From: Escherichia phage vB_vPM_PD112
Sequence record: NC_054928.1
Length of the DNA: 64,000 nt
Strand: one strand, 5' to 3'
The notes under the pieces were generated by a model, which was not told the DNA's origin, made no database searches, and worked only from the letters and a program-made list of their open reading frames with translations. Below are positions 16,266-48,551 of this stretch, piece after piece (position 1 is the stretch's first letter; the number at the start of each line of letters is the position of its first letter). Both the position numbers and the translations under genes were made by a program.

Positions 16266-16299
16266 GTTAATAATACCACAGTTTGAACTTGTTGTAAAC
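16266..16299 (-). promoter_or_regulatory. T4-type early promoter
   Basis: Minus-strand read GTTTACAacaagttcaaactgtgGTATTATTAAC. Confidence 0.55.
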
Positions 16300-22865: not shown

Positions 22866-23121
22866 GCTCTGGTTTACGCCAGTTAATCAATTGGACCTGT
22901 TCAGTACCACATTTTGGGCAGTTCGGAACATTCTTAGAAGCCCTTTCGCGGCGTTCAACCATAACCATAATGGCATCCCAAGCAGGAGGTTTAAAGTCTA
23001 GATCGTCACAGCCATGAATCTTTCCACGCATTTCCAGATCGTCTTCTTCACCAGCCATAATGATTTTAATTAGACTGGAATTACTTGAAGCTGCAATATC
23101 TTCTAATAGACGCTTTTTCAT
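22804..23121 (-). CDS. zinc-ribbon protein
   Basis: CPKCG...CRHCKH four-Cys motif. Confidence 0.45.
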
Positions 23122-24044
23122 TTCAATACCTCAATAGCATTACGTAAACCATTTGCTTTTGCATTAAGAGCTTTTAACAATTTGGTATGTTCGGCAATCT
23201 GGACTTCAACTTCAATCAAACGAGCATTGAGATATTCGCGTTCTTCGCTCAAGTTATCAATCTTTTCTACTTTAGGTTCTTTTACAACTGGCTTATATGT
23301 ATTAGGGTTCTTCAGTTTAATTAGAATGCGTGAACTGTATAACATTGAACCATTATCTTCGGTTTCATCATACATTTCCACTACGTCCATCATCTCCACC
23401 ATCGTGCAGAGTTTATAAGACAGCGAACGAATAGTTTTGTTATGCTTATTAATTTCTCTAGCTGTCATGGTGCCGAGATTACGTGAGTAATAATAAGGAA
23501 CCTGGATATTAATTAATACTGATGAACCACCTGGCTTGTGTGTTACTTCATCAGCAATAACCCAGTCCTTAACATGAACTGTATTTGTACGGTCATCGCC
23601 CGCGGTAAATAGTTTACGAGCATGCTTAAAAAGCATATTCACTTGGTCATTGAATTGACAAGCGAATTTATCAGCAAATTTAGTTTCAGGAATGGTAGAT
23701 AACCAATCAGCTAAATGGGTCTTTTTAACATCGTTAACAATAGTAAATTCAACCAAATCGGTTATAGATGTCGCAGTTTTAATGAATCTCGGCTTCATAA
23801 AGTTTTTAATGTTATCGCGAGCTACAGTAGAAGATAACAGACGAGAACGTTTAAACCATTGAAGCAAATTGCCTAACGAATGAGAATAAGCGTTTTGAGT
23901 ATCTTTACAGATATGATTTTCCTGGCCAACATATTGAAGGAAATCACGAAGAATATTATTGATTACTGCTCTGTGCCCAATCTGATAATTACGGTGTTTA
24001 GTAATAAGACTGTCAAAATAATCAATATAATGTTTACGAGTCAT
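23118..24044 (-). CDS. hypothetical protein with C-terminal coiled coil; probable ATG at 24044 behind GAGGAG RBS
   Basis: ORF; RBS read on minus strand. Confidence 0.5.
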   Translation of the reverse strand: MTRKHYIDYFDSLITKHRNYQIGHRAVINNILRDFLQYVGQENHICKDTQNAYSHSLGNLLQWFKRSRLLSSTVARDNIKNFMKPRFIKTATSITDLVEFTIVNDVKKTHLADWLSTIPETKFADKFACQFNDQVNMLFKHARKLFTAGDDRTNTVHVKDWVIADEVTHKPGGSSVLINIQVPYYYSRNLGTMTAREINKHNKTIRSLSYKLCTMVEMMDVVEMYDETEDNGSMLYSSRILIKLKNPNTYKPVVKEPKVEKIDNLSEEREYLNARLIEVEVQIAEHTKLLKALNAKANGLRNAIEVLK

Positions 24045-24101
24045 ATTAATCTCCTCAGTAGAAAGTAAGAACATTATACCACATCCTTGCGGCAAAGTAA
24101 A

Positions 24102-25115
24102 CTAGTTCAGTGCATTTAGTGCATTGTTCAGTTTAGAACGTTGCTTCGTGAGATTTTTGACTTTTTCTTGAGCTTTTTCTAACATCTTTTCAGCTTCTAA
24201 CACTTCATTAGTTGCTTTAACGAGTTCATCATCTACTGCCTTAAGAGACTTCTCAATCGCGTCAGCGTGCCATTTTTCTACAGGTTTAAAATTTGAATTT
24301 TCAGTAGGAAGAAAATTCACTTTATTGAATTTCCATGCATTTTTATTACCTGAACTATACATCCAAAATTTAGGATCGTTTGATAAGTAATTGGATAAAT
24401 TTAAATTTAAGTTATCTTGCACTTCCTGCTTTTTCTCTTGCGTGACTTCGTCCTTTCTCAAAAAATCGTATTTAAATGAAACGATCATATCAAGTTCATA
24501 TGTTGTGTCTAAGAAATGCTGTGAAATCTTAGACTGAACAGCGGCAACAACATCCATATACTTAAATGCTTCTGTCAACTGCGATTTAAGGCATTCACAA
24601 ATTGAAAGAGAATTTTTTGTATTAGGTTTAAAGCTAATTCGTGCAGTTCTATTATTTTCTTTTAATGGTCTTACTTCCATCTGAAGAGTATAACCATCAA
24701 ATTTCAGATTCTTTAAGTTAATATCAGAACCTTTCAATCGACTCGCAGTTGATAAAATTTGTTTTAATTGTTTACGGAATAGAGCAATAAATCTCCATTC
24801 AAGACGATAATGATTTGGATTAAAAAATCCTGTTGATAAATCGACCTTACTTTGACCAACGCCTTGAACAAATAGAGGATTTTTATAATCAATAGTTTTA
24901 CAGAAATCGGTGAGCTGCTCACGAGCCGTCATTTGCGTAATATACCCTGCTTCGCTAAAATTACGCACCCATTCACTGCTATTCGTATACTTAAAGTGAT
25001 GAATAACACGATTAACTTTATCAGGGTCTAAATTATTTTCACACAAAAATGTCATAACATCACGAGTATAACTGGCATTACGAACCATATCTTCAATTTG
25101 AGAACGAGTTTTCAT
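24102..25115 (-). CDS. hypothetical protein with C-terminal coiled coil
   Basis: 337 aa ORF, AAGGAA RBS. Confidence 0.5.
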   Translation of the reverse strand: MKTRSQIEDMVRNASYTRDVMTFLCENNLDPDKVNRVIHHFKYTNSSEWVRNFSEAGYITQMTAREQLTDFCKTIDYKNPLFVQGVGQSKVDLSTGFFNPNHYRLEWRFIALFRKQLKQILSTASRLKGSDINLKNLKFDGYTLQMEVRPLKENNRTARISFKPNTKNSLSICECLKSQLTEAFKYMDVVAAVQSKISQHFLDTTYELDMIVSFKYDFLRKDEVTQEKKQEVQDNLNLNLSNYLSNDPKFWMYSSGNKNAWKFNKVNFLPTENSNFKPVEKWHADAIEKSLKAVDDELVKATNEVLEAEKMLEKAQEKVKNLTKQRSKLNNALNALN

Positions 25116-25123
25116 GGTGTTCC

Positions 25124-26014
25124 TTAAGATTTAAGTAAATCAACAATTTTAATTAACTTTTCACGCTCAGATTTAGCTTTACTACTCAATCCAGATAGTC
25201 TGAAAATTTCATCGTCATATTGTTGAATAGAAATATTCAGCTCTTCAATTTGCTTATTAAAATAATCAATTTGTTCAGAATGTTTTTCGTTACTACGAAC
25301 TGGTACAGGTTTTGTAGGCAATTTAGTTGAACTGGATTCATCCGGGCGATAAATTAAAATACAACTTGAACCAATCGGACATTTAGCACCAGACACATAT
25401 TCTAATGTTCCGGCTTCTTTTAAAACTTCAAAAGCTAAACAGAGATGATGACCCATATTGGCATAATCTGTAGAGTGAGCTCTGATGTAATAATCATCTC
25501 CACGAGTACTAAATTTAAAGCATTTAAGGTCTTCTGTATTATTGGTCTTAAAAATCATTTGTTTATCTAGACCTTTAGCTAATCGAGCGCCTAATGCTAA
25601 TAATCGTCGTTGATTTTCCCACAAATCCGCAATCATTTGGTCAAATGATAATTTCGGCATTAGTCGACCATAAAGGTCATATCCTTTATTATAATTACGA
25701 AGGATTTCACTCGCATTAATACGAGACAACGCTCCAATTTTATTAAGGGCTTTCATAATGCGATTAGATAAACTCATTCCAGACCCGTTTGGTCGCTGTA
25801 AATGTTTTTCTAATCCAAATCCAATATCAACTTTAAACTTATCTAAAATTTCGGCATGAACATCTTTATCAATAACATTCAAATCCAAAGTTGGGTTAAA
25901 TCTATGAAAAAATTTATCTGGCTCTCCACGACGAAATACAGTCCATTCATTCATCATTTTTTTATTAACTAAAGATTTAATTACTGTATTGACATTATTA
26001 ATTACTACTGACAT
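25124..26014 (-). CDS. hypothetical protein with C-terminal coiled coil; probable ATG at 26014 (track ORF starts at a GTG at 26050)
   Basis: ORF; GAGGAA RBS before MSVVINNVN. Confidence 0.5.
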   Translation of the reverse strand: MSVVINNVNTVIKSLVNKKMMNEWTVFRRGEPDKFFHRFNPTLDLNVIDKDVHAEILDKFKVDIGFGLEKHLQRPNGSGMSLSNRIMKALNKIGALSRINASEILRNYNKGYDLYGRLMPKLSFDQMIADLWENQRRLLALGARLAKGLDKQMIFKTNNTEDLKCFKFSTRGDDYYIRAHSTDYANMGHHLCLAFEVLKEAGTLEYVSGAKCPIGSSCILIYRPDESSSTKLPTKPVPVRSNEKHSEQIDYFNKQIEELNISIQQYDDEIFRLSGLSSKAKSEREKLIKIVDLLKS

Positions 26015-26021
26015 ATTTTCC

Positions 26022-26429
26022 TCACTCAATTTCAATTTTACTAAATACACAGAATATGATTGAACAGACTACATAAGCACCACACACAGATTGAACTAAT
26101 ACCATCCCAAAGAACCAAACAATATTATCAAACAGTGTCTGTTTTACGTCGAAAGGACGTAAACTTACAGTAATATTATCACCTTTTTCTATTGAAGAAT
26201 ACATCTCTGGGGAAATATATTCACTAAATCTATAACCGTCTTTGAGTTCATATACAGCAATAAACGATAAACTAGACCCCTTTCCTTGTGTTCCTGTAAT
26301 GGTATTAACTACAGTAACATCATAATCTTTATAATGCATATAATCATTAATTGCGTAATAACCGTATGCAACTACTACACATAAACAACATATCAATAAA
26401 TTCAATCTTTTAATTATCAACTGTTTCAT
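26022..26429 (-). CDS. small membrane protein (N- and C-terminal TM segments)
   Basis: 135 aa, hydrophobic ends. Confidence 0.45.
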   Translation of the reverse strand: MKQLIIKRLNLLICCLCVVVAYGYYAINDYMHYKDYDVTVVNTITGTQGKGSSLSFIAVYELKDGYRFSEYISPEMYSSIEKGDNITVSLRPFDVKQTLFDNIVWFFGMVLVQSVCGAYVVCSIIFCVFSKIEIE

Positions 26430-26484
26430 AATAATCTCAATTAAAAGGGCTTAGAACCATTATACCATCCTTGGTATAAAGCGG

Positions 26485-27012
26485 TTATGCGAGTACCGTC
26501 TTTAACCGTTCTTCAAACTTCCGAAGAGTATTTTGGCGTTCAGCTCTTTGCTTTTTGTAAGTTTCAATACGCTCTGAAATGAGAGTGTATCGTTCATTTA
26601 CTGATTCTTTCATAAAATCAGGAATTTCACGAGAAGCTTTAATCTCATCAAATTTATCAATAACAGCTTGCTCTTCAGCAATTAAGTTATCATACATTAA
26701 AATATCTTTCTTGATGAACTCAATATCTTCTTGAGTTACACGAGATAATTTAGATGCTTTATCCTTTTTGTACTGTTCGTTAGTATCACGAGACCAGTGT
26801 AATGTACGATTTTTATTCGTATTCTTATAAATTTCTACAATACCAATCTCATCGATAATAACGATCCAATTCCAATGGGATTTGTAAATTTGTCCTCCAT
26901 CAACCGTGATTTCACCTCCAATTGAGATGTCATTAAAGAACTTGCTTTGTGCTTCAGATTTAAATTTACCATCGTTATAATTTACCAAGTTGAAAATATC
27001 TTTAGCGTTCAT
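26485..27012 (-). CDS. hypothetical protein with C-terminal coiled coil
   Basis: 175 aa ORF; early promoter upstream. Confidence 0.5.
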   Translation of the reverse strand: MNAKDIFNLVNYNDGKFKSEAQSKFFNDISIGGEITVDGGQIYKSHWNWIVIIDEIGIVEIYKNTNKNRTLHWSRDTNEQYKKDKASKLSRVTQEDIEFIKKDILMYDNLIAEEQAVIDKFDEIKASREIPDFMKESVNERYTLISERIETYKKQRAERQNTLRKFEERLKTVLA

Positions 27013-27037
27013 TTTCTGTTCCTCCGTAGTTGATAGT

Positions 27038-27070
27038 TGTATAGTACCACAGAGGAACAGTCTTGTAAAC
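27038..27070 (-). promoter_or_regulatory. T4-type early promoter
   Basis: Minus-strand read GTTTACAagactgttcctctgtgGTACTATACA. Confidence 0.6.
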
Positions 27071-27072
27071 CA

Positions 27073-27387
27073 CTAAAAGAAACTTCTTTCACAATTTTTT
27101 CCACTAAACCATGCGCTCACTGCTTTCTTAGTCTCAGGAGCAGTGTTATCCATAAACCATTCAAAGGCAGCCTTTTTATGATTCTGGAGGGCTTCTCGGG
27201 CTTTAATCTGCTCACGGTCTATTAACACTAACATATGAGCCTTTCTTGTCACCATGGGCTTCTTATGATTTTTTGAATACTCCCAGTCATTTGTCCATCG
27301 CATTGTCGTTGCGAACTGAAATACAGCTTCTTTAATCTTAGTTTCGTAAATTTCACGAGCCTTTGAGTATAACATCACTACCTCCAT
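27073..27387 (-). CDS. hypothetical protein
   Basis: 104 aa ORF. Confidence 0.4.
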   Translation of the reverse strand: MEVVMLYSKAREIYETKIKEAVFQFATTMRWTNDWEYSKNHKKPMVTRKAHMLVLIDREQIKAREALQNHKKAAFEWFMDNTAPETKKAVSAWFSGKNCERSFF

Positions 27388-27477
27388 TCACCAGTTTAAT
27401 TCTAGTCATCTTTTTAATGGCAGTCCATATAATCTATTTCTGAACTGCCTTTTTGTCTTAGAAGGCCTCTTATGAAT

Positions 27478-28446
27478 TTATTTCAGAAGAGTAACCTCAG
27501 CAATTTCTTGCCAACCGTTTTTGTCGGTCATAATAAAGTCAGCAAGATAAAGTGCAGTACGCAGTGAAACATTGCGTAAACGGTTAACATTGACTTTCAT
27601 CCATGATAATGCTTTATAAGTTTCTTCATCAGAAAGACCGCGCTTTTGCATCATGTCGGTTGAAAGAATAACATCTTCAACCCTGACCATAATTTCTTCA
27701 TTAGTGTGAACACCCAAATCCAAATAAACTGAGCGGGATACTAATGCTTGTAAATGTGGAGCAAGTTTAGTACCACGGTCTAATTCGCGGTCAATGTCAA
27801 CGTTTGTGATAAAAACAATCGTTCCTTTAAATTCAAACTCACGCTCAATGCCTTTTTCTTCTAAGTAAGAAGATGCAGTGCTCCAGCAGACTTTACGGGT
27901 CTCTCCAGTGTCCAGAGCGGCTTTTAGAAGATTAAGAATGTCCATATCAGAGAAAACATCCACATCATCAATCAAAAGGACAGAATTCTCTTCACGATTA
28001 TTCCAAAGTTGTTCATAAAGACCGATACCGGAGATTTTACCGTTAATGCTTTTATATTCAATGTATCCATTATCATTTGCTTTATTCAAAGCTTTATCTA
28101 AAGAATACGTTTTACCAATACCTGCTGCACCAGAGATAATTAATGAACGAATGTTTCCGTTAATAATACCATTCGTCATCATTCCCATAACATTAAATCT
28201 TTTATTAATGCGGGTTTTCATATCTTCATACGATTCTTTAACTTCTTCAACTTTTACACCATCATATGAAATGTCTGATTTGTAAACCCAAACACCGCGA
28301 CGTTTACCGTCAATTTCAACAAAAACTTTACCATCTCCTTGTGCATCTACCGGAGCATTATCTGGGAACCATTCACCTAAGAGCTCAAAAGTTCCAGAGA
28401 TTTCTTTACCGAAGTAGATACCCTTATTGATAGTTACAGTTTTCAT
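27478..28446 (-). CDS. P-loop AAA-type ATPase with N-terminal extra domain; probable ATG at 28446
   Basis: Walker A GAAGIGKT, Walker B VLLIDDVD. Confidence 0.6.
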   Translation of the reverse strand: MKTVTINKGIYFGKEISGTFELLGEWFPDNAPVDAQGDGKVFVEIDGKRRGVWVYKSDISYDGVKVEEVKESYEDMKTRINKRFNVMGMMTNGIINGNIRSLIISGAAGIGKTYSLDKALNKANDNGYIEYKSINGKISGIGLYEQLWNNREENSVLLIDDVDVFSDMDILNLLKAALDTGETRKVCWSTASSYLEEKGIEREFEFKGTIVFITNVDIDRELDRGTKLAPHLQALVSRSVYLDLGVHTNEEIMVRVEDVILSTDMMQKRGLSDEETYKALSWMKVNVNRLRNVSLRTALYLADFIMTDKNGWQEIAEVTLLK

Positions 28447-28477
28447 TTTATTCTCCAATTTTACATTTGTTTTGATA

Positions 28478-28512
28478 GGGTAATAGTATCACACTACTAC
28501 CCTGCTGTAAAC
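28478..28512 (-). promoter_or_regulatory. T4-type early promoter
   Basis: Minus-strand read GTTTACAgcagggtagtagtgtgaTACTATTACC. Confidence 0.6.
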
Positions 28513-28515
28513 AAT

Positions 28516-28779
28516 TTATTTTAATGTTCGCCAAATTTTTACTGCTTCGCGACGAGATACTTCTACAGCTCCAAGTTCTACAGCTTTTTGGCGTCGCCGA
28601 GCGTGTAAGTCATAATGTTTAATGCGTTTATCTTGAAACCAAGAACGTTTCATTCCTATTGCTTCTGCCATTTCGTGAAGCTCTTCAATATCTCCATCAG
28701 TGAACATATGACAATTTTTAGTTGGATGACCGCGAAGTTTCCATCCATGATTCATTAAAACATCTACGTAAACTGTCAT
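28516..28779 (-). CDS. conserved hypothetical protein
   Basis: 87 aa ORF (…KHYDLHARRRQKAVELGA…). Confidence 0.45.
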   Translation of the reverse strand: MTVYVDVLMNHGWKLRGHPTKNCHMFTDGDIEELHEMAEAIGMKRSWFQDKRIKHYDLHARRRQKAVELGAVEVSRREAVKIWRTLK

Positions 28780-28959
28780 TGATTCTTCTCCAAATAAGTT
28801 TCGATAATTTTCTGAGCGAGATAAACTGCATTATCTTCAGTTGCATCTTCTAAGAAACTTTCAAAACACTCTGAAATTTCTTCTGTGTCAATCAACTTTT
28901 TTACTTCAATTGGTGTAATTTTCATTTTGTTTTTCCGTTTAAGTGTTTGTTTTGATAGT

Positions 28960-28992
28960 TGTATAGTACCATAAAGCTTTATGCTTGTAAAC
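28960..28992 (-). promoter_or_regulatory. T4-type early promoter
   Basis: Minus-strand read GTTTACAagcataaagctttatgGTACTATACA. Confidence 0.6.
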
Positions 28993-29022
28993 CGTTTTGT
29001 GAAAAATTTTTGAAATAAAAAA

Positions 29023-29040
29023 GGGAGCCCGAAGGCTCCC
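29023..29040 (-). terminator. intrinsic terminator
   Basis: gggagcccgaaggctccc hairpin followed by T-run on minus strand. Confidence 0.65.
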
Positions 29041-29042
29041 TA

Positions 29043-30056
29043 TCATTTATAATAACTTCGGTGGTTTTCAAGATAGACCTTCTCAAGGAAGTCATCCCAG
29101 AAACTCATGTCTACTGTTTTAGGCATACCGTTCTTAGAAGCTTCAGTAGATGCTGCTTCTACTTGATCGACCACATCTTCCAAAAACTCTTGAACCGTTT
29201 TAAATGGATGTTTACCCAACTTCACGTCAAGAATAAATGGAGCGTCTTGAAGTGGATAAACCAAGTCACCAGTTTTGTAAATTTCCAATAGTTGAAGTCC
29301 ACCACGACAAGCATGGCTCAGAGCTTTCCAGTCAATACCTTCGTTGGCTTTGGCCTTACGGGCACGTTCACCATATTCAGCATCTAATTTGTTCAGTGAC
29401 TGCTTAAGCTCAATAAGAGAAAGCGTTGTCTGATATTTACGACCCAACACAGTGTAGAACATTTGCGGGCCTGTTTTCTCATAATTATGGAACACCCATT
29501 CACAGAACTCGTTTTCTGGAAGACGATGCTTAATATCTTCAACTTTAGTGCGACGAAGTCTATCAGGGATTCCTTCTTGATAGTCGACCCACTGGTCAGG
29601 GATTTGATTAACTACTTTCAATACATCACGTAATGCGGCCAAACGAGAACCCTTGACACCGTATTTAGAAGCTTGCTTACGGACATATCCTAAATAGGAT
29701 TTCATGTTAGTCGTATAAAAACGAGAACGGTTGTCTTGAATAAACTTCCACACATCAGGCAAATCAGATTTAACCACTAGCTCAGGTGGAGTGTGAAGCA
29801 TATCTAATGCTACAGTTTCACCATCTGCTGCTAATTTAAAGAAATACTTAAGACTGTATAGTTCATGGTCAATATCATCTTTAGTGTTTTTAGATGATGT
29901 GTTGTTAGTGTTTTTACTCATGTGCTCTTTAACGTTTCCAATAAGAATATCACGAGCAGGAGGAACAAAGATTTCTTTAAAATCTACATCAGATTCTGGA
30001 GTAGAAGTTCCATAAAGATGACTACCAAAATAACTTTTCATTACTGTTTTCATCAT
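29043..30056 (-). CDS. Pol-beta-superfamily nucleotidyltransferase-fold protein
   Basis: N-terminal GSHLYGTSTPESDVDF (G-S...D-x-D) with downstream acidic residue; 337 aa. Confidence 0.55.
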   Translation of the reverse strand: MMKTVMKSYFGSHLYGTSTPESDVDFKEIFVPPARDILIGNVKEHMSKNTNNTSSKNTKDDIDHELYSLKYFFKLAADGETVALDMLHTPPELVVKSDLPDVWKFIQDNRSRFYTTNMKSYLGYVRKQASKYGVKGSRLAALRDVLKVVNQIPDQWVDYQEGIPDRLRRTKVEDIKHRLPENEFCEWVFHNYEKTGPQMFYTVLGRKYQTTLSLIELKQSLNKLDAEYGERARKAKANEGIDWKALSHACRGGLQLLEIYKTGDLVYPLQDAPFILDVKLGKHPFKTVQEFLEDVVDQVEAASTEASKNGMPKTVDMSFWDDFLEKVYLENHRSYYK

Positions 30057-30062
30057 TCAGCC

Positions 30063-30515
30063 TTATATTCCAATAACAGGACACACTTTAGCTTTACGAG
30101 CTTTTAAAAATTCAACGATAATCGATTTCTTGGGTTGAATAGGAGGTAAACCTTTATACGCCCTATCAATGTTTTCTACGTGTAAAGCATAATCCTTTTT
30201 CCATTTATAATCTTTATATTTTTCACGCAAATGTGCAGGAATAACAAATGAACCGATAATAAGTAAAACAACAAAAAGCGCAAGTATAAATGCCGATGGA
30301 AGAAGAATCCATAAACTACCGAAAATAAGCCAACGTTGTAGGCTTTCTGCACAAATAATTGTTAGCCCTACGAGTATAGCACATCCAAAAATAGAAACGA
30401 AAAATGTAGGAATGGCAATAGACCAAAAATATGCGCATAGTGTCTTAGGTCGTTGCCATTCATCGTTAAACAATTTGAATAATTTATAGTGCCAAGAGTT
30501 TTCATTAATAATCAT
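30063..30515 (-). CDS. membrane protein (two to three TM segments)
   Basis: 150 aa, long hydrophobic stretches. Confidence 0.45.
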   Translation of the reverse strand: MIINENSWHYKLFKLFNDEWQRPKTLCAYFWSIAIPTFFVSIFGCAILVGLTIICAESLQRWLIFGSLWILLPSAFILALFVVLLIIGSFVIPAHLREKYKDYKWKKDYALHVENIDRAYKGLPPIQPKKSIIVEFLKARKAKVCPVIGI

Positions 30516-30517
30516 AA

Positions 30518-31039
30518 TTATCCTTTCATTGAAGGTGTAACAGTTGTTAAATACTTAATCATAGCCTCAGCTTCTGATTTTGATAATGAAATTTCTCCAT
30601 TGTTTTGACGAATAGAAATAAAATCCGGATGACGGTCACCACCAGCTTTTAAAACACACATATAAGTATCAGTTTCATCTTCAATATTTGAAATGATTGA
30701 AGCAGTTCCACATGAATGCGGTTTTTGATAAATCAATACAGCTTTTCTTCCGCCATTTGACTGTTCATAAACTTTTAATACATCAAACAAATCACTTCTT
30801 TTATCAATAGCTAAAATGTTATTTTCATCTTCAATGTTAAATCCTTCGGATACTTCATAAAGTGTCACCCATAAATCGCCAATATCAATAACAGCGTTCA
30901 CTTTTCCATGACTTTCAAGAGCATGACAAATTTTCTTGATTTCGTCATAACTCATTTTAATAATATCATCTCCTTGACTAAGAAAGATGTCATTTTTAAA
31001 TTCAACACGAATTAAACCGCTTCCACTTGAAATAAACAT
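30518..31039 (-). CDS. hypothetical protein, paralogue of the next gene
   Basis: 173 aa; shares GFNIE..., IRQ... and C-terminal A-x-x-YL-x-V-P-M motifs with 31046..31609. Confidence 0.5.
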   Translation of the reverse strand: MFISSGSGLIRVEFKNDIFLSQGDDIIKMSYDEIKKICHALESHGKVNAVIDIGDLWVTLYEVSEGFNIEDENNILAIDKRSDLFDVLKVYEQSNGGRKAVLIYQKPHSCGTASIISNIEDETDTYMCVLKAGGDRHPDFISIRQNNGEISLSKSEAEAMIKYLTTVTPSMKG

Positions 31040-31045
31040 ATTTCC

Positions 31046-31609
31046 TCACTTTGAAATCATAGTTGGAATAACAGAATCAAGATAAGTCTTTAGCGCAATA
31101 GCTTCGTCTTTGGTAAATGTGACAATATGTGCTCGAGAATCATCAATTTGACGAATAGTTAAGACATCTCCTTCTTCATAGCATTTTGATACATTTAAAA
31201 CAGTTTCATCATTCTGATCGCACTGATCGCAAGCGTTAGTAATAATAGCATTGCAATTTTTAAGCCATTTTAAACTATGTTTTCTTTCATTAGAATAATA
31301 AAAATATTTAATGTAAGTTATAAAATTATCCCAATTATTAATTGATAAGCATATTGACTCGCTTTCAATGTTAAATCCTGGGCATAAAGAATAGAAATGA
31401 ATTTTATGCTCATCATTAATGCTTACAATTTTATCAGTATAAGGATATTCAATTTGGGTTAAATGAATGATTTCACTAGGCGTAAAATATAGCATATCGT
31501 CTTCTTGCGTCAAACGATACATGTTATTTACTTTTTCTATAGCCAATTCACCAAAAAGCGGACTAACTTCTAGTACTAATCGTTTCATATTAATCCTTTT
31601 TATTGGCAC
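31046..31609 (-). CDS. hypothetical protein, paralogue of the preceding gene
   Basis: 187 aa; shared motifs as above. Confidence 0.5.
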   Translation of the reverse strand: MPIKRINMKRLVLEVSPLFGELAIEKVNNMYRLTQEDDMLYFTPSEIIHLTQIEYPYTDKIVSINDEHKIHFYSLCPGFNIESESICLSINNWDNFITYIKYFYYSNERKHSLKWLKNCNAIITNACDQCDQNDETVLNVSKCYEEGDVLTIRQIDDSRAHIVTFTKDEAIALKTYLDSVIPTMISK

Positions 31610-32963: not shown

Positions 32964-32996
32964 TGTATAGTATCACAGCTCAAATGGAAAGTAAAC
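32964..32996 (-). promoter_or_regulatory. T4-type early promoter
   Basis: Minus-strand read GTTTACtttccatttgagctgtgaTACTATACA. Confidence 0.55.
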
Positions 32997-44234: not shown

Positions 44235-44268
44235 TGTATAGTACCATGGAAGAACAAGGATGTAAACA
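44235..44268 (-). promoter_or_regulatory. T4-type early promoter
   Basis: Minus-strand read GTTTACatccttgttcttccatgGTACTATACA, near-identical to the one at 2215. Confidence 0.6.
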
Positions 44269-45029: not shown

Positions 45030-45300
45030 TTTGTACGAAACGCCGGGATTCGAACCCGGTTATTAAGTAGTTGACGCTACTCAATATTTTTAAAAGGCCA
45101 TATCTCGACCATATCCGAACGTTCCGTCAAAAACGCTACTCGGCTTACGGCAAAGATATTTCCTCGAATCGATAATTTGGTGCGCCGTTTCTGCTGTGAT
45201 GTAAGAGGGCATCAACAAATCATAAAGATTTATTAACACAATTCCTTACCCAGGGAACATCAGTCCGACGACTTACCGGTAGCGACCCGGTTTCTTGTTT
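45030..45300 (-). ncRNA. stable small RNA region (T4 species 1/2-like RNAs); boundaries approximate
   Basis: No ORF; tRNA-like T-arm GGTTCGAATCC and long complementary stems between the terminator and tRNA-Arg. Confidence 0.35.
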
Positions 45301-45377
45301 GGTCGAGGCAGAAGGATTCTAACCTTCAACCAACGGATTAGAAATCCGTTGCTCTATACAATTGAGCTATGCCCCGT
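45301..45377 (-). tRNA. tRNA-Arg (anticodon UCU)
   Basis: Hand-folded cloverleaf on minus strand, 7 bp acceptor stem, CCA encoded. Confidence 0.7.
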
Positions 45378-45379
45378 AA

Positions 45380-46045
45380 TTAAAATTTCATTTTTCGACC
45401 TTTAAACCATCCTTCTGGAATTGGGTCAGTTTTCTTAATACGTTTAGAAACTTTTTCATCTAATGAATGAATCCACATCATGCCAAATTGGGAATTCTTT
45501 TCACCTTGTTGGTGTTTATTTCTGGCGTGAGATTCTTTCATTTTATTAATAGTTTCAGGAGTATGATGCTTATTTAAAAATCTGCTATTATTTAAAAATT
45601 TTTCCCTGTATTCAGGAGTTGACCACAAGCGTTTAAATACATTTGAACCATTTTTACGATATTTTTCTTGAAGTAAAATATCATTTTTAAAACGTGACTT
45701 AAACGATTTAGCTCCTTTTAAACTAGCGTCTTTCTTCTGATTTAGCATCTCAGGAATATTTATATGATCCCATCCACCTTCACCGCCAAGTTTTAAATTA
45801 TACACATCAGGTCTATTTAAAAACTCTTCTGTGACAATATTTTTCTCGGCTTCAAGCATAGATTCTTTATCGTCAAAATATTCTAATATTTCTTTAGAAA
45901 AATTTTCTATACCATACCTGTCTTGGGCTCTTTTTAATAATTTACCAGAACCCATATATCCATCATCTAAATTTTCGGTAGAATGCACACCAATATAAAT
46001 TTTATTATTAATTTTATTTGTTATTTTATAAGCGTAATGGAACAT
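45380..46045 (-). CDS. segB: GIY-YIG homing endonuclease SegB
   Basis: 221 aa; YKITNKINNKIYIGVHST...GYMGSG; inside the tRNA cluster as in T4. Confidence 0.85.
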   Translation of the reverse strand: MFHYAYKITNKINNKIYIGVHSTENLDDGYMGSGKLLKRAQDRYGIENFSKEILEYFDDKESMLEAEKNIVTEEFLNRPDVYNLKLGGEGGWDHINIPEMLNQKKDASLKGAKSFKSRFKNDILLQEKYRKNGSNVFKRLWSTPEYREKFLNNSRFLNKHHTPETINKMKESHARNKHQQGEKNSQFGMMWIHSLDEKVSKRIKKTDPIPEGWFKGRKMKF

Positions 46046-46086
46046 AAATATCTCCTATTTCTAAGAGTATTTATGTTCCCAAAATA

Positions 46087-46160
46087 TGACCCAGACCAGA
46101 TTCGAACTGATAACCTTTCCCTTATGAGGGGACTGCTGCTAACCATTGAGCTACAGGGCC
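46087..46160 (-). tRNA. tRNA-Ile (anticodon CAU)
   Basis: Hand-folded cloverleaf; T-loop TTCGAAT; anticodon loop CTCATAA. Confidence 0.6.
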
Positions 46161-46166
46161 TTGATA

Positions 46167-46239
46167 TGCTGATTGACGGAATCGAACCGCCGACCTTCTC
46201 ATTACAAGTGAGTTGCTCTACCTACTGAGCTAAATCAGC
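46167..46239 (-). tRNA. tRNA-Thr (anticodon UGU)
   Basis: Hand-folded cloverleaf; anticodon loop CTTGTAA. Confidence 0.7.
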
Positions 46240-46246
46240 GAAATTA

Positions 46247-46333
46247 CGGAGGCGATAGGATTTGAACCTATGAGTCGCCGGAGCGACTGCCGGTTTTCAA
46301 GACCGGTGCATTAAACCACTCTGCCACGCCTCC
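46247..46333 (-). tRNA. tRNA-Ser (anticodon UGA), long variable arm
   Basis: Hand-folded; anticodon loop CTTGAAA; 87 nt. Confidence 0.7.
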
Positions 46334-46335
46334 AG

Positions 46336-46409
46336 TCTCCGTGGCAGGATTTGAACCTACGACATTCTGCTCCCAAAGCAGACGCTCTACCAAACTGAGC
46401 TACACGGAG
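46336..46409 (-). tRNA. tRNA-Pro (anticodon UGG)
   Basis: Hand-folded; anticodon loop TTTGGGA. Confidence 0.7.
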
Positions 46410-46421
46410 TAAATTAAATTT

Positions 46422-46493
<72 letters not shown>

Positions 46494-46499
46494 AAACTT

Positions 46500-46586
46500 T
46501 GGTACGAGAAGTGGGACTCGAACCCACAAGGAAATCATTCCGCAGCATTTTAAGTGCTGTGCCTTTACCAATTTGACCATTCTCGC
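46500..46586 (-). tRNA. tRNA-Leu (anticodon UAA), long variable arm, CCA encoded
   Basis: Hand-folded; anticodon loop CTTAAAA. Confidence 0.7.
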
Positions 46587-48187: not shown

Positions 48188-48221
48188 GGTAATAGTATCA
48201 CAACTAAAACCCTATGTAAAC
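48188..48221 (-). promoter_or_regulatory. T4-type early promoter
   Basis: Minus-strand read GTTTACAtagggttttagttgtgaTACTATTACC. Confidence 0.55.
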
Positions 48222-48517: not shown

Positions 48518-48551
48518 GATAATAGTATCACTACCTCATCAACGTGTAAAC
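48518..48551 (-). promoter_or_regulatory. T4-type early promoter
   Basis: Minus-strand read GTTTACAcgttgatgaggtagtgaTACTATTATC. Confidence 0.55.

Follow-up and report, generated by a model that had tools for sequence, protein, structure and literature searches.

Two genes of phage T4, nrdC.10 and nrdC.11, are already known, and the assignments of their products to ATPase and nucleotidyltransferase domain families have both been in print since 2006 (PMC1524935). The RefSeq label for nrdC.11 is already nucleotidyltransferase. The "thioredoxin" labels that are widespread on genes of the nrdC.10/nrdC.11 type are annotation errors. A literature search with variant spellings and accession numbers found no functional study of nrdC.10 or nrdC.11; the nrdC.11-mobD.3 segment can be deleted from T4 (PMC9825161).

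The biochemically characterized family closest to NrdC.11 is RlaP. [quoted passage not shown] In the RlaP sequence similarity network of the same preprint, T4 NrdC.11 falls in cluster 5 and the Pseudomonas enzymes fall in cluster 1a. Two further systems offer comparisons for the locus described here: the PeSL-mediated shuffling of genes in T4-type phages (PMC2839356, PMC4122927) and Hailong, an operon of two genes, one for a transmembrane protein and the other for a nucleotidyltransferase. The first-pass annotation of this DNA had stated that no function was known for the block; the 2006 domain assignments and the preprint's placement of T4 NrdC.11 in the RlaP family make that statement out of date.

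Organization of the nrdC.10-nrdC.11 region

The window (the whole stretch of 64,000 nucleotides that was analyzed) is from a Tequatrovirus, with 97 to 99.7% identity to sequenced T4-like phages across a 4.1-kb region, and the block at positions 27478 to 30515 is the nrdC.10–nrdC.11 segment, already on record for T4-like phages. The first-pass annotation had recognized four open reading frames here, an ATPase, an 87-aa protein, a 337-aa nucleotidyltransferase, and a 150-aa membrane protein. Their coordinates and motifs were confirmed, and all four are on the minus strand. They are real genes; homologues were detected in 325 to 1516 phage records (nucleotidyltransferase, 1516; ATPase, 1310; membrane protein, 843; DUF4031 [the 87-aa protein], 325). 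A conserved 49-aa open reading frame (orf49) at 28776 to 28925, also on the minus strand, had been overlooked. The products of nrdC.11 and nrdC.10 are orthologous to T4 NrdC.11 (NP_049709; 94.7% identity) and NrdC.10 (NP_049708; 98.7% identity), and the order and strand of the two genes are the same as in T4. It is likely that the block is part of the variable, or "hyperplastic," nrdC-mobD region of early genes in T4-like phage and that its members are independent accessory genes, neighbors through descent and cassette shuffling, rather than parts of one system.

The strict T4 early-promoter pattern (GTTTACA-N14-TGNTACTAT) was found at nine sites in the window, all on the minus strand, versus 0 expected. 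Exact matches are located before nrdC.10 (28483 to 28512), before orf49 and DUF4031 at a site that serves nrdC.10 in T4 (28963 to 28992), and before nrdC.8, where the ATPase unit ends (27041 to 27070), all on the minus strand. The only convincing terminator, an intrinsic one on the same strand at 29022 to 29041 (GC-rich stem of 8 bp and then a T-run; −17.7 kcal/mol, z −3.9), ends the nucleotidyltransferase unit, and the genome record of phage DalCa annotates a terminator at this site. The sequences 3' of the ATPase and DUF4031 genes folded no better than shuffles. Neither the membrane gene nor the nucleotidyltransferase gene has a separate promoter; the two follow a further pair of genes at gaps of 2 to 6 nt and close a longer upstream transcription unit, and the strict pattern next occurs upstream at 32967 to 32996. 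The earlier proposal of an early promoter and a terminator for every unit stands for the three strict promoters and for the terminator after the nucleotidyltransferase gene; it fails for terminators after the ATPase and DUF4031 genes and for a promoter of the membrane and nucleotidyltransferase genes. The genes of the block are spread over at least three separate transcription units.

The DUF4031 protein (28516 to 28779, minus strand; 87 aa; PF13223, E 8e-22; phrog_4887), previously noted simply as small and conserved, indeed belongs to a family, with D6, C23, H24, H55, and D57 as invariant residues. It forms a two-gene cassette with orf49 (phrog_6888, E 5.5e-31), the stop codon of which overlaps the DUF4031 start (ATGA), and of the 11 related loci having DUF4031, orf49 was detected next to it in 10. 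In T4 the interval between nrdC.10 and nrdC.11 is only 115 bp and lacks this cassette, as well as the second early promoter found here. The sequence equals the T4 nrdC.11-nrdC.10 intergenic promoter up to CTATCAA, and at that point, directly after the promoter common to both phages, an insertion of approximately 480 bp starts. From this alignment the cassette appears to be a recent insertion relative to T4. Elsewhere, its position differs between phages. Ten long members of the DUF4031 family had one fusion, to DUF1643, and no other partner, and sequence and profile searches of the PDB with DUF4031 gave nothing significant.

The terminator at 29022 to 29041 and the promoter at 28963 to 28992, both identical in T4, are a PeSL-type terminator/promoter composite. 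This arrangement of a stem-loop terminator and then an early promoter (29041 to 28963) borders an indel of unrelated small open reading frames relative to T4; divergence begins right after the promoter, and the insertion is closed by a second early promoter, in which the CTATCAA(AACAAA) downstream box recurs. The behavior of the cassette fits the published PeSL-mediated shuffling (PMC2839356, PMC4122927), and orf49 and DUF4031, with their own early promoter, may be a mobile cassette that recombined in at an early promoter. The recombination event is deduced from the alignment.

Upstream of nrdC.11, T4 has the homing endonuclease gene mobD, whereas the phage studied here has a membrane gene and a y05I-like gene. 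The membrane gene (30063 to 30515, minus strand) lies directly upstream of the nucleotidyltransferase gene and encodes a 150-aa protein that matches PHROG 944 (phrog_944, "membrane protein"); a hydrophobic core at residues 25 to 98, in two stretches (25 to 60 and 61 to 98), agrees with its initial description as a membrane protein. The family conserves SWH...P.(S/T)LC.YFW near the N terminus and KA(R/K)K.K.CP near the C terminus, and the C-terminal tail is very basic. In close relatives the stop codon of the membrane gene overlaps the nucleotidyltransferase start; here, a 1-nt insertion relative to those phages changes the last codons. This is a fast-diverging phage family, and the gene may be a fast-evolving accessory gene. 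Two tandem y05I-like (mobD.1-family) paralogues at 30518 to 31609 on the minus strand, immediately upstream of the membrane gene, both match PF24449 and PF24448 and share 28% identity (E 2e-11); they are apparently in the transcription unit of the membrane and nucleotidyltransferase genes.

The AAA+ ATPase NrdC.10

The nrdC.10 orthologue encodes 322 aa from an ATG at 28446 (27478 to 28446, minus strand). The open reading frame as listed spans 27478 to 28458 (326 aa), but the true start is probably the ATG at 28446, which is preceded by GGAG. The protein has an N-terminal beta-rich domain (residues 1 to 62), a linker helix (73 to 96), and a core with the alpha/beta fold and helical lid of AAA+ proteins (approximately 100 to 322), and its first description as a Walker A/B ATPase with an extra N-terminal domain was accurate. 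Walker A is GAAGIGKT and Walker B is LLIDDVD. In an alignment of 45 sequences, K112/T113, D160/D161, N215, R238, and R291/R296 were invariant or nearly so, corresponding to Walker A, Walker B, sensor 1, the arginine finger, and sensor 2.

Among curated AAA profiles of Pfam, nSTAND3, AAA_16, AAA_14, AAA_22, and AAA all remained under their gathering cut-offs, and the best NCBIfam match was Hda, at only E 0.0096. The N-terminal domain alone had no match in Pfam, and sequence and profile searches of the PDB with the ATPase gave nothing significant. A scan of bacterial genomes for relatives recovered a single T4-like phage contig that had been mis-binned, plus two matches that were weak and partial, with no informative bacterial context. 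The partial matches were on a Romboutsia MAG contig with phage-like neighbors and on a short Methanobrevibacter MAG contig.

NrdC.10, and perhaps NrdC.11, could function in phage DNA replication or repair, the ATPase as an alternative factor of the clamp-loader or RarA type and the nucleotidyltransferase as an enzyme that extends DNA ends without a template. The ATPase has clamp-loader-like motifs in common with T4 gp44, and in an hhalign comparison Walker A, Walker B, sensor 1, SRS against SRC, and the lid lined up (E 6.7e-5); its weaker PHROG matches were to "clamp loader" families (E 1e-4). The ATPase gene is within the replication cluster of Vibrio phage K444 and has genes for topoisomerase II and ribonucleotide reductase as neighbors in KVP40-like phages, and the RlaP preprint lists a section devoted to DNA and dNTPs as reactants. 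However, the hhalign probability was only 64%, the neighborhoods of the ATPase gene vary by lineage and are not specific, and T4 dispenses with nrdC.11 (PMC9825161). Unlike the clamp-loader clade (T4 gp44, RFC, RarA), the ATPase has Asp rather than Glu as the second Walker B residue, approximately 25 extra residues (absent from gp44) separating helix 3 from strand 4, an N-terminal beta-rich domain unique to the NrdC.10 family, and no partner subunits encoded nearby. A replication or repair function is considered unlikely. NrdC.10 is more likely a stand-alone AAA+ ATPase in which clamp-loader-like motifs are combined with a variable N-terminal adaptor domain, and its probable task is to remodel a protein or a complex of protein and nucleic acid.

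The RlaP-family nucleotidyltransferase NrdC.11

The nrdC.11 orthologue is located at 29043 to 30056 on the minus strand. Its designation in the first-pass annotation as a nucleotidyltransferase of the Pol-beta superfamily was upheld by a match to the Pfam RlaP profile (PF10127; 43.7 bits with a cut-off of 23; E 3.4e-11) and by the catalytic signature. The alignment to PF10127 is limited to the N-terminal 130 residues of the protein and positions 23 to 143 of the 249 in the profile; four homologues that are 31 to 53% identical also exceed the cut-off. The signature of the superfamily (hG[GS], DxD, and a third carboxylate) is present. Residues 11 to 26 are GSHLYGTSTPESDVDF, in which G11, S12, D23, and D25 are invariant among the homologues, and the third carboxylate, residue 85, is Asp here and Glu in a Vibrio phage homologue.

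In the predicted layout, the nucleotidyltransferase domain is N-terminal, a variable beta-rich insert follows (approximately residues 155 to 209), and the C-terminal domain is helical. The structural model remained mediocre because further homology searches for a deeper alignment gave almost solely close T4-like sequences. When this model was compared with the PDB in Foldseek there was no match at E ≤ 0.001, and the best weak ones were terminal uridylyltransferases and ANT enzymes. Sequence and profile searches of a 2026 copy of the PDB gave nothing significant and returned no nucleotidyltransferase, HalB included.

In addition to the above-cut-off Pfam match, the phage protein has the GS...DxD...D signature in common with the RlaP enzymes of P. 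fluorescens and P. aeruginosa, and its predicted two-domain layout appears to agree with the crystal structure described for PfRlaP. It differs from them in being approximately 90 residues longer, with the beta-rich insert, in having just its N-terminal third aligned to the Pfam profile, and in belonging to a separate network cluster (5 versus 1a). It is also possible to imagine NrdC.11 not as an RNA-end enzyme but as an ANT- or MNT-type enzyme that nucleotidylylates a small molecule or a protein, for example to neutralize a host toxin. This is quite improbable, since PF10127 was the sole family-level sequence match, with NTP_transf_2 at only E 0.09, and the characterized RlaP members work on RNA.

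Gene linkage and a possible role in RNA repair

The separability of the genes was surveyed in approximately 160 related phage loci, including 78 centered on the nucleotidyltransferase and 80 on the membrane gene; for the latter a narrower alignment was used, the highly diverse one being too divergent. The ATPase, nucleotidyltransferase, and membrane genes were each found without the others or far from them. Among the 78 nucleotidyltransferase-centered loci, the ATPase gene was nearby only in those of Tevenvirinae type and of Acinetobacter phages. It was missing from all other loci with a nucleotidyltransferase identity of 40 to 58%, and also from three loci (L018, L019, and L052) in which the nucleotidyltransferase is 80% identical to the present one; at another (L139), the ATPase was kept and the nucleotidyltransferase was gone. 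In distant phages the ATPase gene lies by topoisomerase and ribonucleotide reductase genes, in a cluster of replication genes, or close to motA/asiA, and a nucleotidyltransferase is absent from the surrounding 6 kb. Phage records with the nucleotidyltransferase versus the ATPase numbered 286 versus 149 for Klebsiella hosts and 59 versus 121 for Vibrio. Roughly half of the 80 membrane-gene loci had no nucleotidyltransferase within 6 kb, and several contigs have both genes 70 to 100 kb apart (approximately 73 kb on one contig, L079 and L109). In T4 it is mobD, not a membrane gene, that adjoins nrdC.11.

The first-pass annotation had pointed to a nucleotide-signaling defense or counter-defense module. 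Spelled out, such a module would include the small protein, a nucleotidyltransferase that synthesizes or uses up a nucleotide signal, and the ATPase and membrane protein as partners or effectors. All four genes fall in a 3-kb span of one strand in an early-gene region, and the order membrane gene, nucleotidyltransferase, ATPase is retained in Tevenvirinae and in Acinetobacter T4-like phages, the latter with a nucleotidyltransferase that is only 51 to 55% identical. Given this conserved order and the stop/start overlap in close relatives, some functional coupling within these lineages is possible. However, the parts are in separate transcription units and each occurs without the others, DUF4031 is newly inserted, and T4 has mobD where the membrane gene would be. 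PADLOC defense models had zero matches for all six proteins, the Pfam matches of the block proteins included none of the SMODS, CD-NTase, SAVED, CARF, TIR, or STING families and no signal sensor, and the nucleotidyltransferase falls in RlaP, a family that adds to RNA 3' ends. The proposed module is not supported, and we regard it as very improbable.

Another conceivable reading is a Hailong-like pair, in which an oligonucleotide made by the nucleotidyltransferase gates the adjoining membrane protein, perhaps in superinfection exclusion or lysis control; the membrane gene is directly upstream and overlaps the nucleotidyltransferase start in close relatives, and phages with the nucleotidyltransferase but without the membrane gene would fit the Hailong asymmetry, in which loss of the nucleotidyltransferase is the toxic event. 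This is very improbable in view of the PDB and PADLOC results and the many membrane-family contigs on which the nucleotidyltransferase is absent within 6 kb or 70 to 100 kb away: the obligate two-gene pairing of Hailong is broken in T4 and at membrane-gene loci, and in these searches the block proteins showed no sequence-level relationship to HalA/HalB or the CD-NTases of CBASS, and no effector or sensor domains were among their Pfam matches.

For NrdC.11 as an individual accessory gene, similarity to RlaP suggests that it probably acts in RNA or tRNA end repair, and from family membership we infer a putative activity of adding nucleotides to RNA 3' ends. A role in tRNA repair specifically is speculative. 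Nucleotide addition by NrdC.11 could let the phage Pnkp and RNA ligase 1 restore tRNAs shortened by a host anticodon nuclease. Tentatively, NrdC.11 might be a missing third T4 tRNA-repair enzyme: once a "smart" anticodon nuclease such as RloC had cut out the wobble nucleotide, it would put a nucleotide back on the 5' half of the tRNA at its 3'-OH, and Pnkp and RNA ligase 1 could then reseal a full-length tRNA. The RlaP family takes its name from linkage to RNA ligase or RNA-repair genes, and nrdC.11 does not adjoin rtcB or any RNA ligase gene. The genes pseT and rnlA are absent from the window and in T4 are approximately 80 kb away from nrdC.11; an RNA ligase or Pnkp gene was within 3.5 to 10 kb in just 5 of the 78 nucleotidyltransferase-centered loci, which is estimated to be about the chance level, and no ligase gene was near the nucleotidyltransferase in four annotated distant loci.

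The four genes should not be counted as a defense-like operon. A counter-defense role for the nucleotidyltransferase alone, via RNA repair, is plausible. One worthwhile lead is that T4, the classic tRNA-repair phage, carries a putative RlaP enzyme; if the repair proposal is true, NrdC.11 would be a counter-defense gene against nucleases thought to defeat phage repair.

Composition of the block and the DUF4031 cassette

The 4.1 kb around the block was 97 to 99.7% identical to many Tequatrovirus (T4-like) genomes, and at least 80% of this region was covered in 406 phage records. All of the genes in the block (27478-30515) are on the minus strand, which is the T4 early-gene strand. The ORFs and motifs claimed in a first-pass annotation were found where it had placed them. 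In comparisons with the T4 reference, the 326-aa ORF was identified as nrdC.10 (98.7% identity) and the 337-aa ORF (29043-30056) as nrdC.11 (94.7% identity), which in T4 carries the RefSeq label "nucleotidyltransferase"; GSHLYGTSTPESDVDF corresponds to residues 11 to 26 of the 337-aa ORF. The 87-aa protein (28516-28779) matched DUF4031 (E = 8e-22). A conserved 49-aa ORF (orf49; 28776-28925; phrog_6888), the stop of which overlaps the DUF4031 start, had been missed. In many deposited genomes the nrdC.x genes, those for the ATPase and nucleotidyltransferase included, are nearly all labelled "thioredoxin" (23118-30056 in the window and matching GenBank genes, for example in ON229909.1 and contig locus L093), with [quoted passage not shown] used for some mobD.x genes. 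Such labels appear to be errors spread from gene names.

The spacing between nrdC.11 and nrdC.10 in T4 is only 115 bp. No difference from T4 occurs in the terminator and early promoter up to CTATCAA; after this point, ∼480 bp in the window comprise orf49, the DUF4031 gene, and a second early promoter that now drives nrdC.10. The orf49/DUF4031 pair was present in 11 of 78 viral contig loci centred on nucleotidyltransferase homologues, and in other phages it is located between the nucleotidyltransferase and ATPase genes, or 3.5 to 4.8 kb away beyond the ATPase gene, or is absent. Judged from the sequence junctions, insertion of this cassette is probably a case of promoter-mediated shuffling of the PeSL type, which has already been published (PMC2839356, PMC4122927). 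DUF4031 is a large family (3309 representative clusters), and the invariance of D6, C23, H24, H55, and D57 in its alignment suggests a small enzyme or a metal site. No solved structural relative of DUF4031 was found, and the only fusion partner found was DUF1643, in one member.

The 150-aa protein (30063-30515) has two long hydrophobic stretches (residues 25 to 60 and 61 to 98) and matched a PHROG family designated "membrane protein". Its alignment with homologues of 22 to 49% identity retains an N-terminal SWH...P.(S/T)LC.YFW motif, a C-terminal K.K.C(P) motif, and two invariant cysteines, and the cytoplasmic tail is very basic. In close relatives the stop of this gene (...VCPVIEYKAE) overlaps the ATG of the nucleotidyltransferase gene, whereas an extra G at ∼30063-30072 on the minus strand of the window makes the protein end in ...VCPVIGI and abolishes the overlap. 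The extra G may reflect true variation or an error in sequencing.

Transcription units and separability of the genes

A search of the window with a strict T4 early-promoter pattern (GTTTACA-N14-TGNTACTAT) returned nine sites, all on the minus strand, compared to none expected by chance. Three are in or next to the block, before nrdC.8 (27041-27070), the ATPase gene (28483-28512), and orf49/DUF4031 (28963-28992); the other six are outside it, at 2218-2247, 16270-16299, 32967-32996, 44238-44267, 48192-48221, and 48522-48551. The nine promoters are near-identical and delineate the window's early transcription units. The only good terminator (29022-29041, minus strand; −17.7 kcal/mol; z = −3.9) directly follows the nucleotidyltransferase gene, and folding after the ATPase and DUF4031 genes was no better than in shuffled controls. 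No strict-pattern promoter of its own was found for the membrane protein gene or the nucleotidyltransferase gene, both of which are packed behind two y05I-like genes with gaps of 2 to 6 nt. Thus, the proposal that each unit has its own early promoter and terminator was borne out for the three promoters, but not for terminators in general or for these two genes. This layout of promoters and terminator, together with the gene packing, places the ATPase and nucleotidyltransferase genes in different transcription units.

The y05I-like genes, directly upstream of the membrane protein gene (30518-31039 and 31046-31609, minus strand), are tandem paralogues of the T4 mobD.1 family, with 28% mutual identity (E = 2e-11). 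Both matched PF24449 and PF24448 ("putative transcription factor"). T4 has mobD.1 as a single copy versus two in the window.

In order to evaluate linkage, the 78 nucleotidyltransferase-centred contigs and 80 contigs centred on membrane protein homologues were each searched for the other genes. The ATPase gene is 1 to 3.3 kb downstream of the nucleotidyltransferase gene at the majority of Tevenvirinae-type loci, and likewise in T4-like phages of Acinetobacter. It has been cleanly lost from three loci (L018, L019, and L052) that keep a nucleotidyltransferase 80% identical to that of the window, was not found within 10 kb at any other locus where nucleotidyltransferase identity was 40 to 58%, and at L139 is kept without the nucleotidyltransferase. 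ATPase genes of distant phages neighbour topoisomerase II and ribonucleotide reductase genes, lie inside a replication cluster, or are near motA/asiA, with no nucleotidyltransferase nearby. A DNA-repair pairing of the two proteins is improbable. Klebsiella phages had 286 nucleotidyltransferase records versus 149 for the ATPase, and Vibrio phages 59 versus 121.

The best-supported interpretation is that the block consists of early accessory genes that are independent of one another. The first-pass suggestion of a single nucleotide-signalling module has little probability, because the parts are separable across loci and lie in different transcription units, the block proteins had zero matches to PADLOC defence models, and their Pfam matches included no cyclic-nucleotide synthase or sensor domain. 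A pairing of membrane protein and nucleotidyltransferase as in the Hailong defence system also seems unlikely. The stop/start overlap in close relatives makes a lineage-restricted coupling of these two genes possible; in T4 mobD lies beside nrdC.11 and the membrane protein gene is absent there, and in Aeromonas-type genomes the two genes are 70 to 100 kb apart (for example, L079 and L109, on one contig).

The NrdC.10 ATPase

NrdC.10 contains both Walker motifs (A, GAAGIGKT; B, LLIDDVD), and its likely start is ATG 28446, which is preceded by GGAG, rather than TTG 28458. Its structure model was good (pLDDT 90.4), with a five-stranded N-terminal domain (residues 1 to 62), a long helix (73 to 96), and an AAA+ core and lid. 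A profile alignment to gp44, the clamp loader of this phage (6075-7049; E = 6.7e-5), matched Walker A, Walker B, sensor 1, SRS versus SRC, and the lid, and revealed a ∼25-residue insertion ahead of strand 4 in the ATPase. When 185,579 species genomes of bacteria and archaea were scanned, the matches consisted of a single mis-binned T4-like contig and two weak, incomplete hits; the family is virtually restricted to phages.

Jumbo-phage homologues wholly lack the N-terminal domain. One of the two weak hits, on a Romboutsia MAG contig where nearby genes are phage-like (L090, 7155-8798), is a 547-aa protein with a NrdC.10-like AAA+ core (30% identity), in which an unrelated region of ∼300 residues replaces the beta-rich domain; the adjacent gene encodes a ParB-like protein. 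The 547-aa protein suggests that the family exchanges N-terminal adaptor domains. NrdC.10 can be described no further than as a probable remodelling ATPase whose N-terminal adaptor is swappable, and its motifs and some neighbourhoods allow only a weak guess at a role in DNA transactions.

NrdC.11 and a possible role in tRNA repair

The nucleotidyltransferase domain of nrdC.11 and the AAA motif of nrdC.10 were reported in 2006 (PMC1524935), and nrdC.11 is dispensable for laboratory growth of T4 (PMC9825161). The window protein scored 43.7 bits against PF10127 (RlaP), for which the Pfam cut-off is 23, and homologues with 31 to 53% identity from Acinetobacter, Aeromonas, Klebsiella jumbo, and Vibrio phages also passed. 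Four positions of the Pol-beta catalytic signature (G11, S12, D23, and D25) do not vary in the family, and residue 85 is always acidic (Asp or Glu); a C-terminal DWKA..HA.R...Q motif is invariant as well. The AlphaFold2 model was moderate (pLDDT 74.7), with an N-terminal nucleotidyltransferase domain, a beta-rich insert (∼155 to 209), and a C-terminal helical domain.

A 2025 preprint (bioRxiv 10.64898/2025.12.29.696909) shows that two Pseudomonas RlaP enzymes extend RNA 3'-OH ends by one or two nucleotides, with mimics of tRNA breaks as preferred substrates; there, RlaP is proposed to counter nucleotide-removing ribotoxins such as RloC, and the family network includes T4 NrdC.11 as a functionally uncharacterised member. 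RloC cuts out the wobble nucleotide, and phage tRNA repair would be expected to fail on such damage. Family membership points to addition of nucleotides at RNA 3'-OH ends by NrdC.11, and its acting as a small-molecule or protein nucleotidylyltransferase has low probability. Alongside Pnkp and RNA ligase 1, NrdC.11 might repair tRNA from which a nucleotide had been excised, a speculative but attractive role. Genomic linkage of pseT/rnlA to nrdC.11 is absent in T4, and in other phages we estimate that linkage to the nucleotidyltransferase gene is not above chance frequency.

In four Aeromonas-type T4-like contigs (L132, L141, L144, and L171), a membrane protein homologue lies ∼4 to 5 kb from rnlA and not beside the RlaP nucleotidyltransferase; its distance to pseT is ∼6 kb in L144 and L171. 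This proximity to tRNA-repair genes may be coincidence. The window has a seven-tRNA cluster (45300-46586, minus strand; Arg-TCT, Met/Ile-CAT, Thr, Ser, Pro, Gly, and Leu), with a 221-aa ORF between its first two tRNA genes and a 210-aa ORF just upstream. T4 has eight tRNAs, Gln among them; tRNA-Gln was not detected in the window's cluster.

Earlier work has already described the genes, the domains assigned to them, and the mechanism of cassette shuffling. The finding is ordinary, except for the testable idea that the RlaP enzyme of T4 extends the T4 tRNA-repair pathway.
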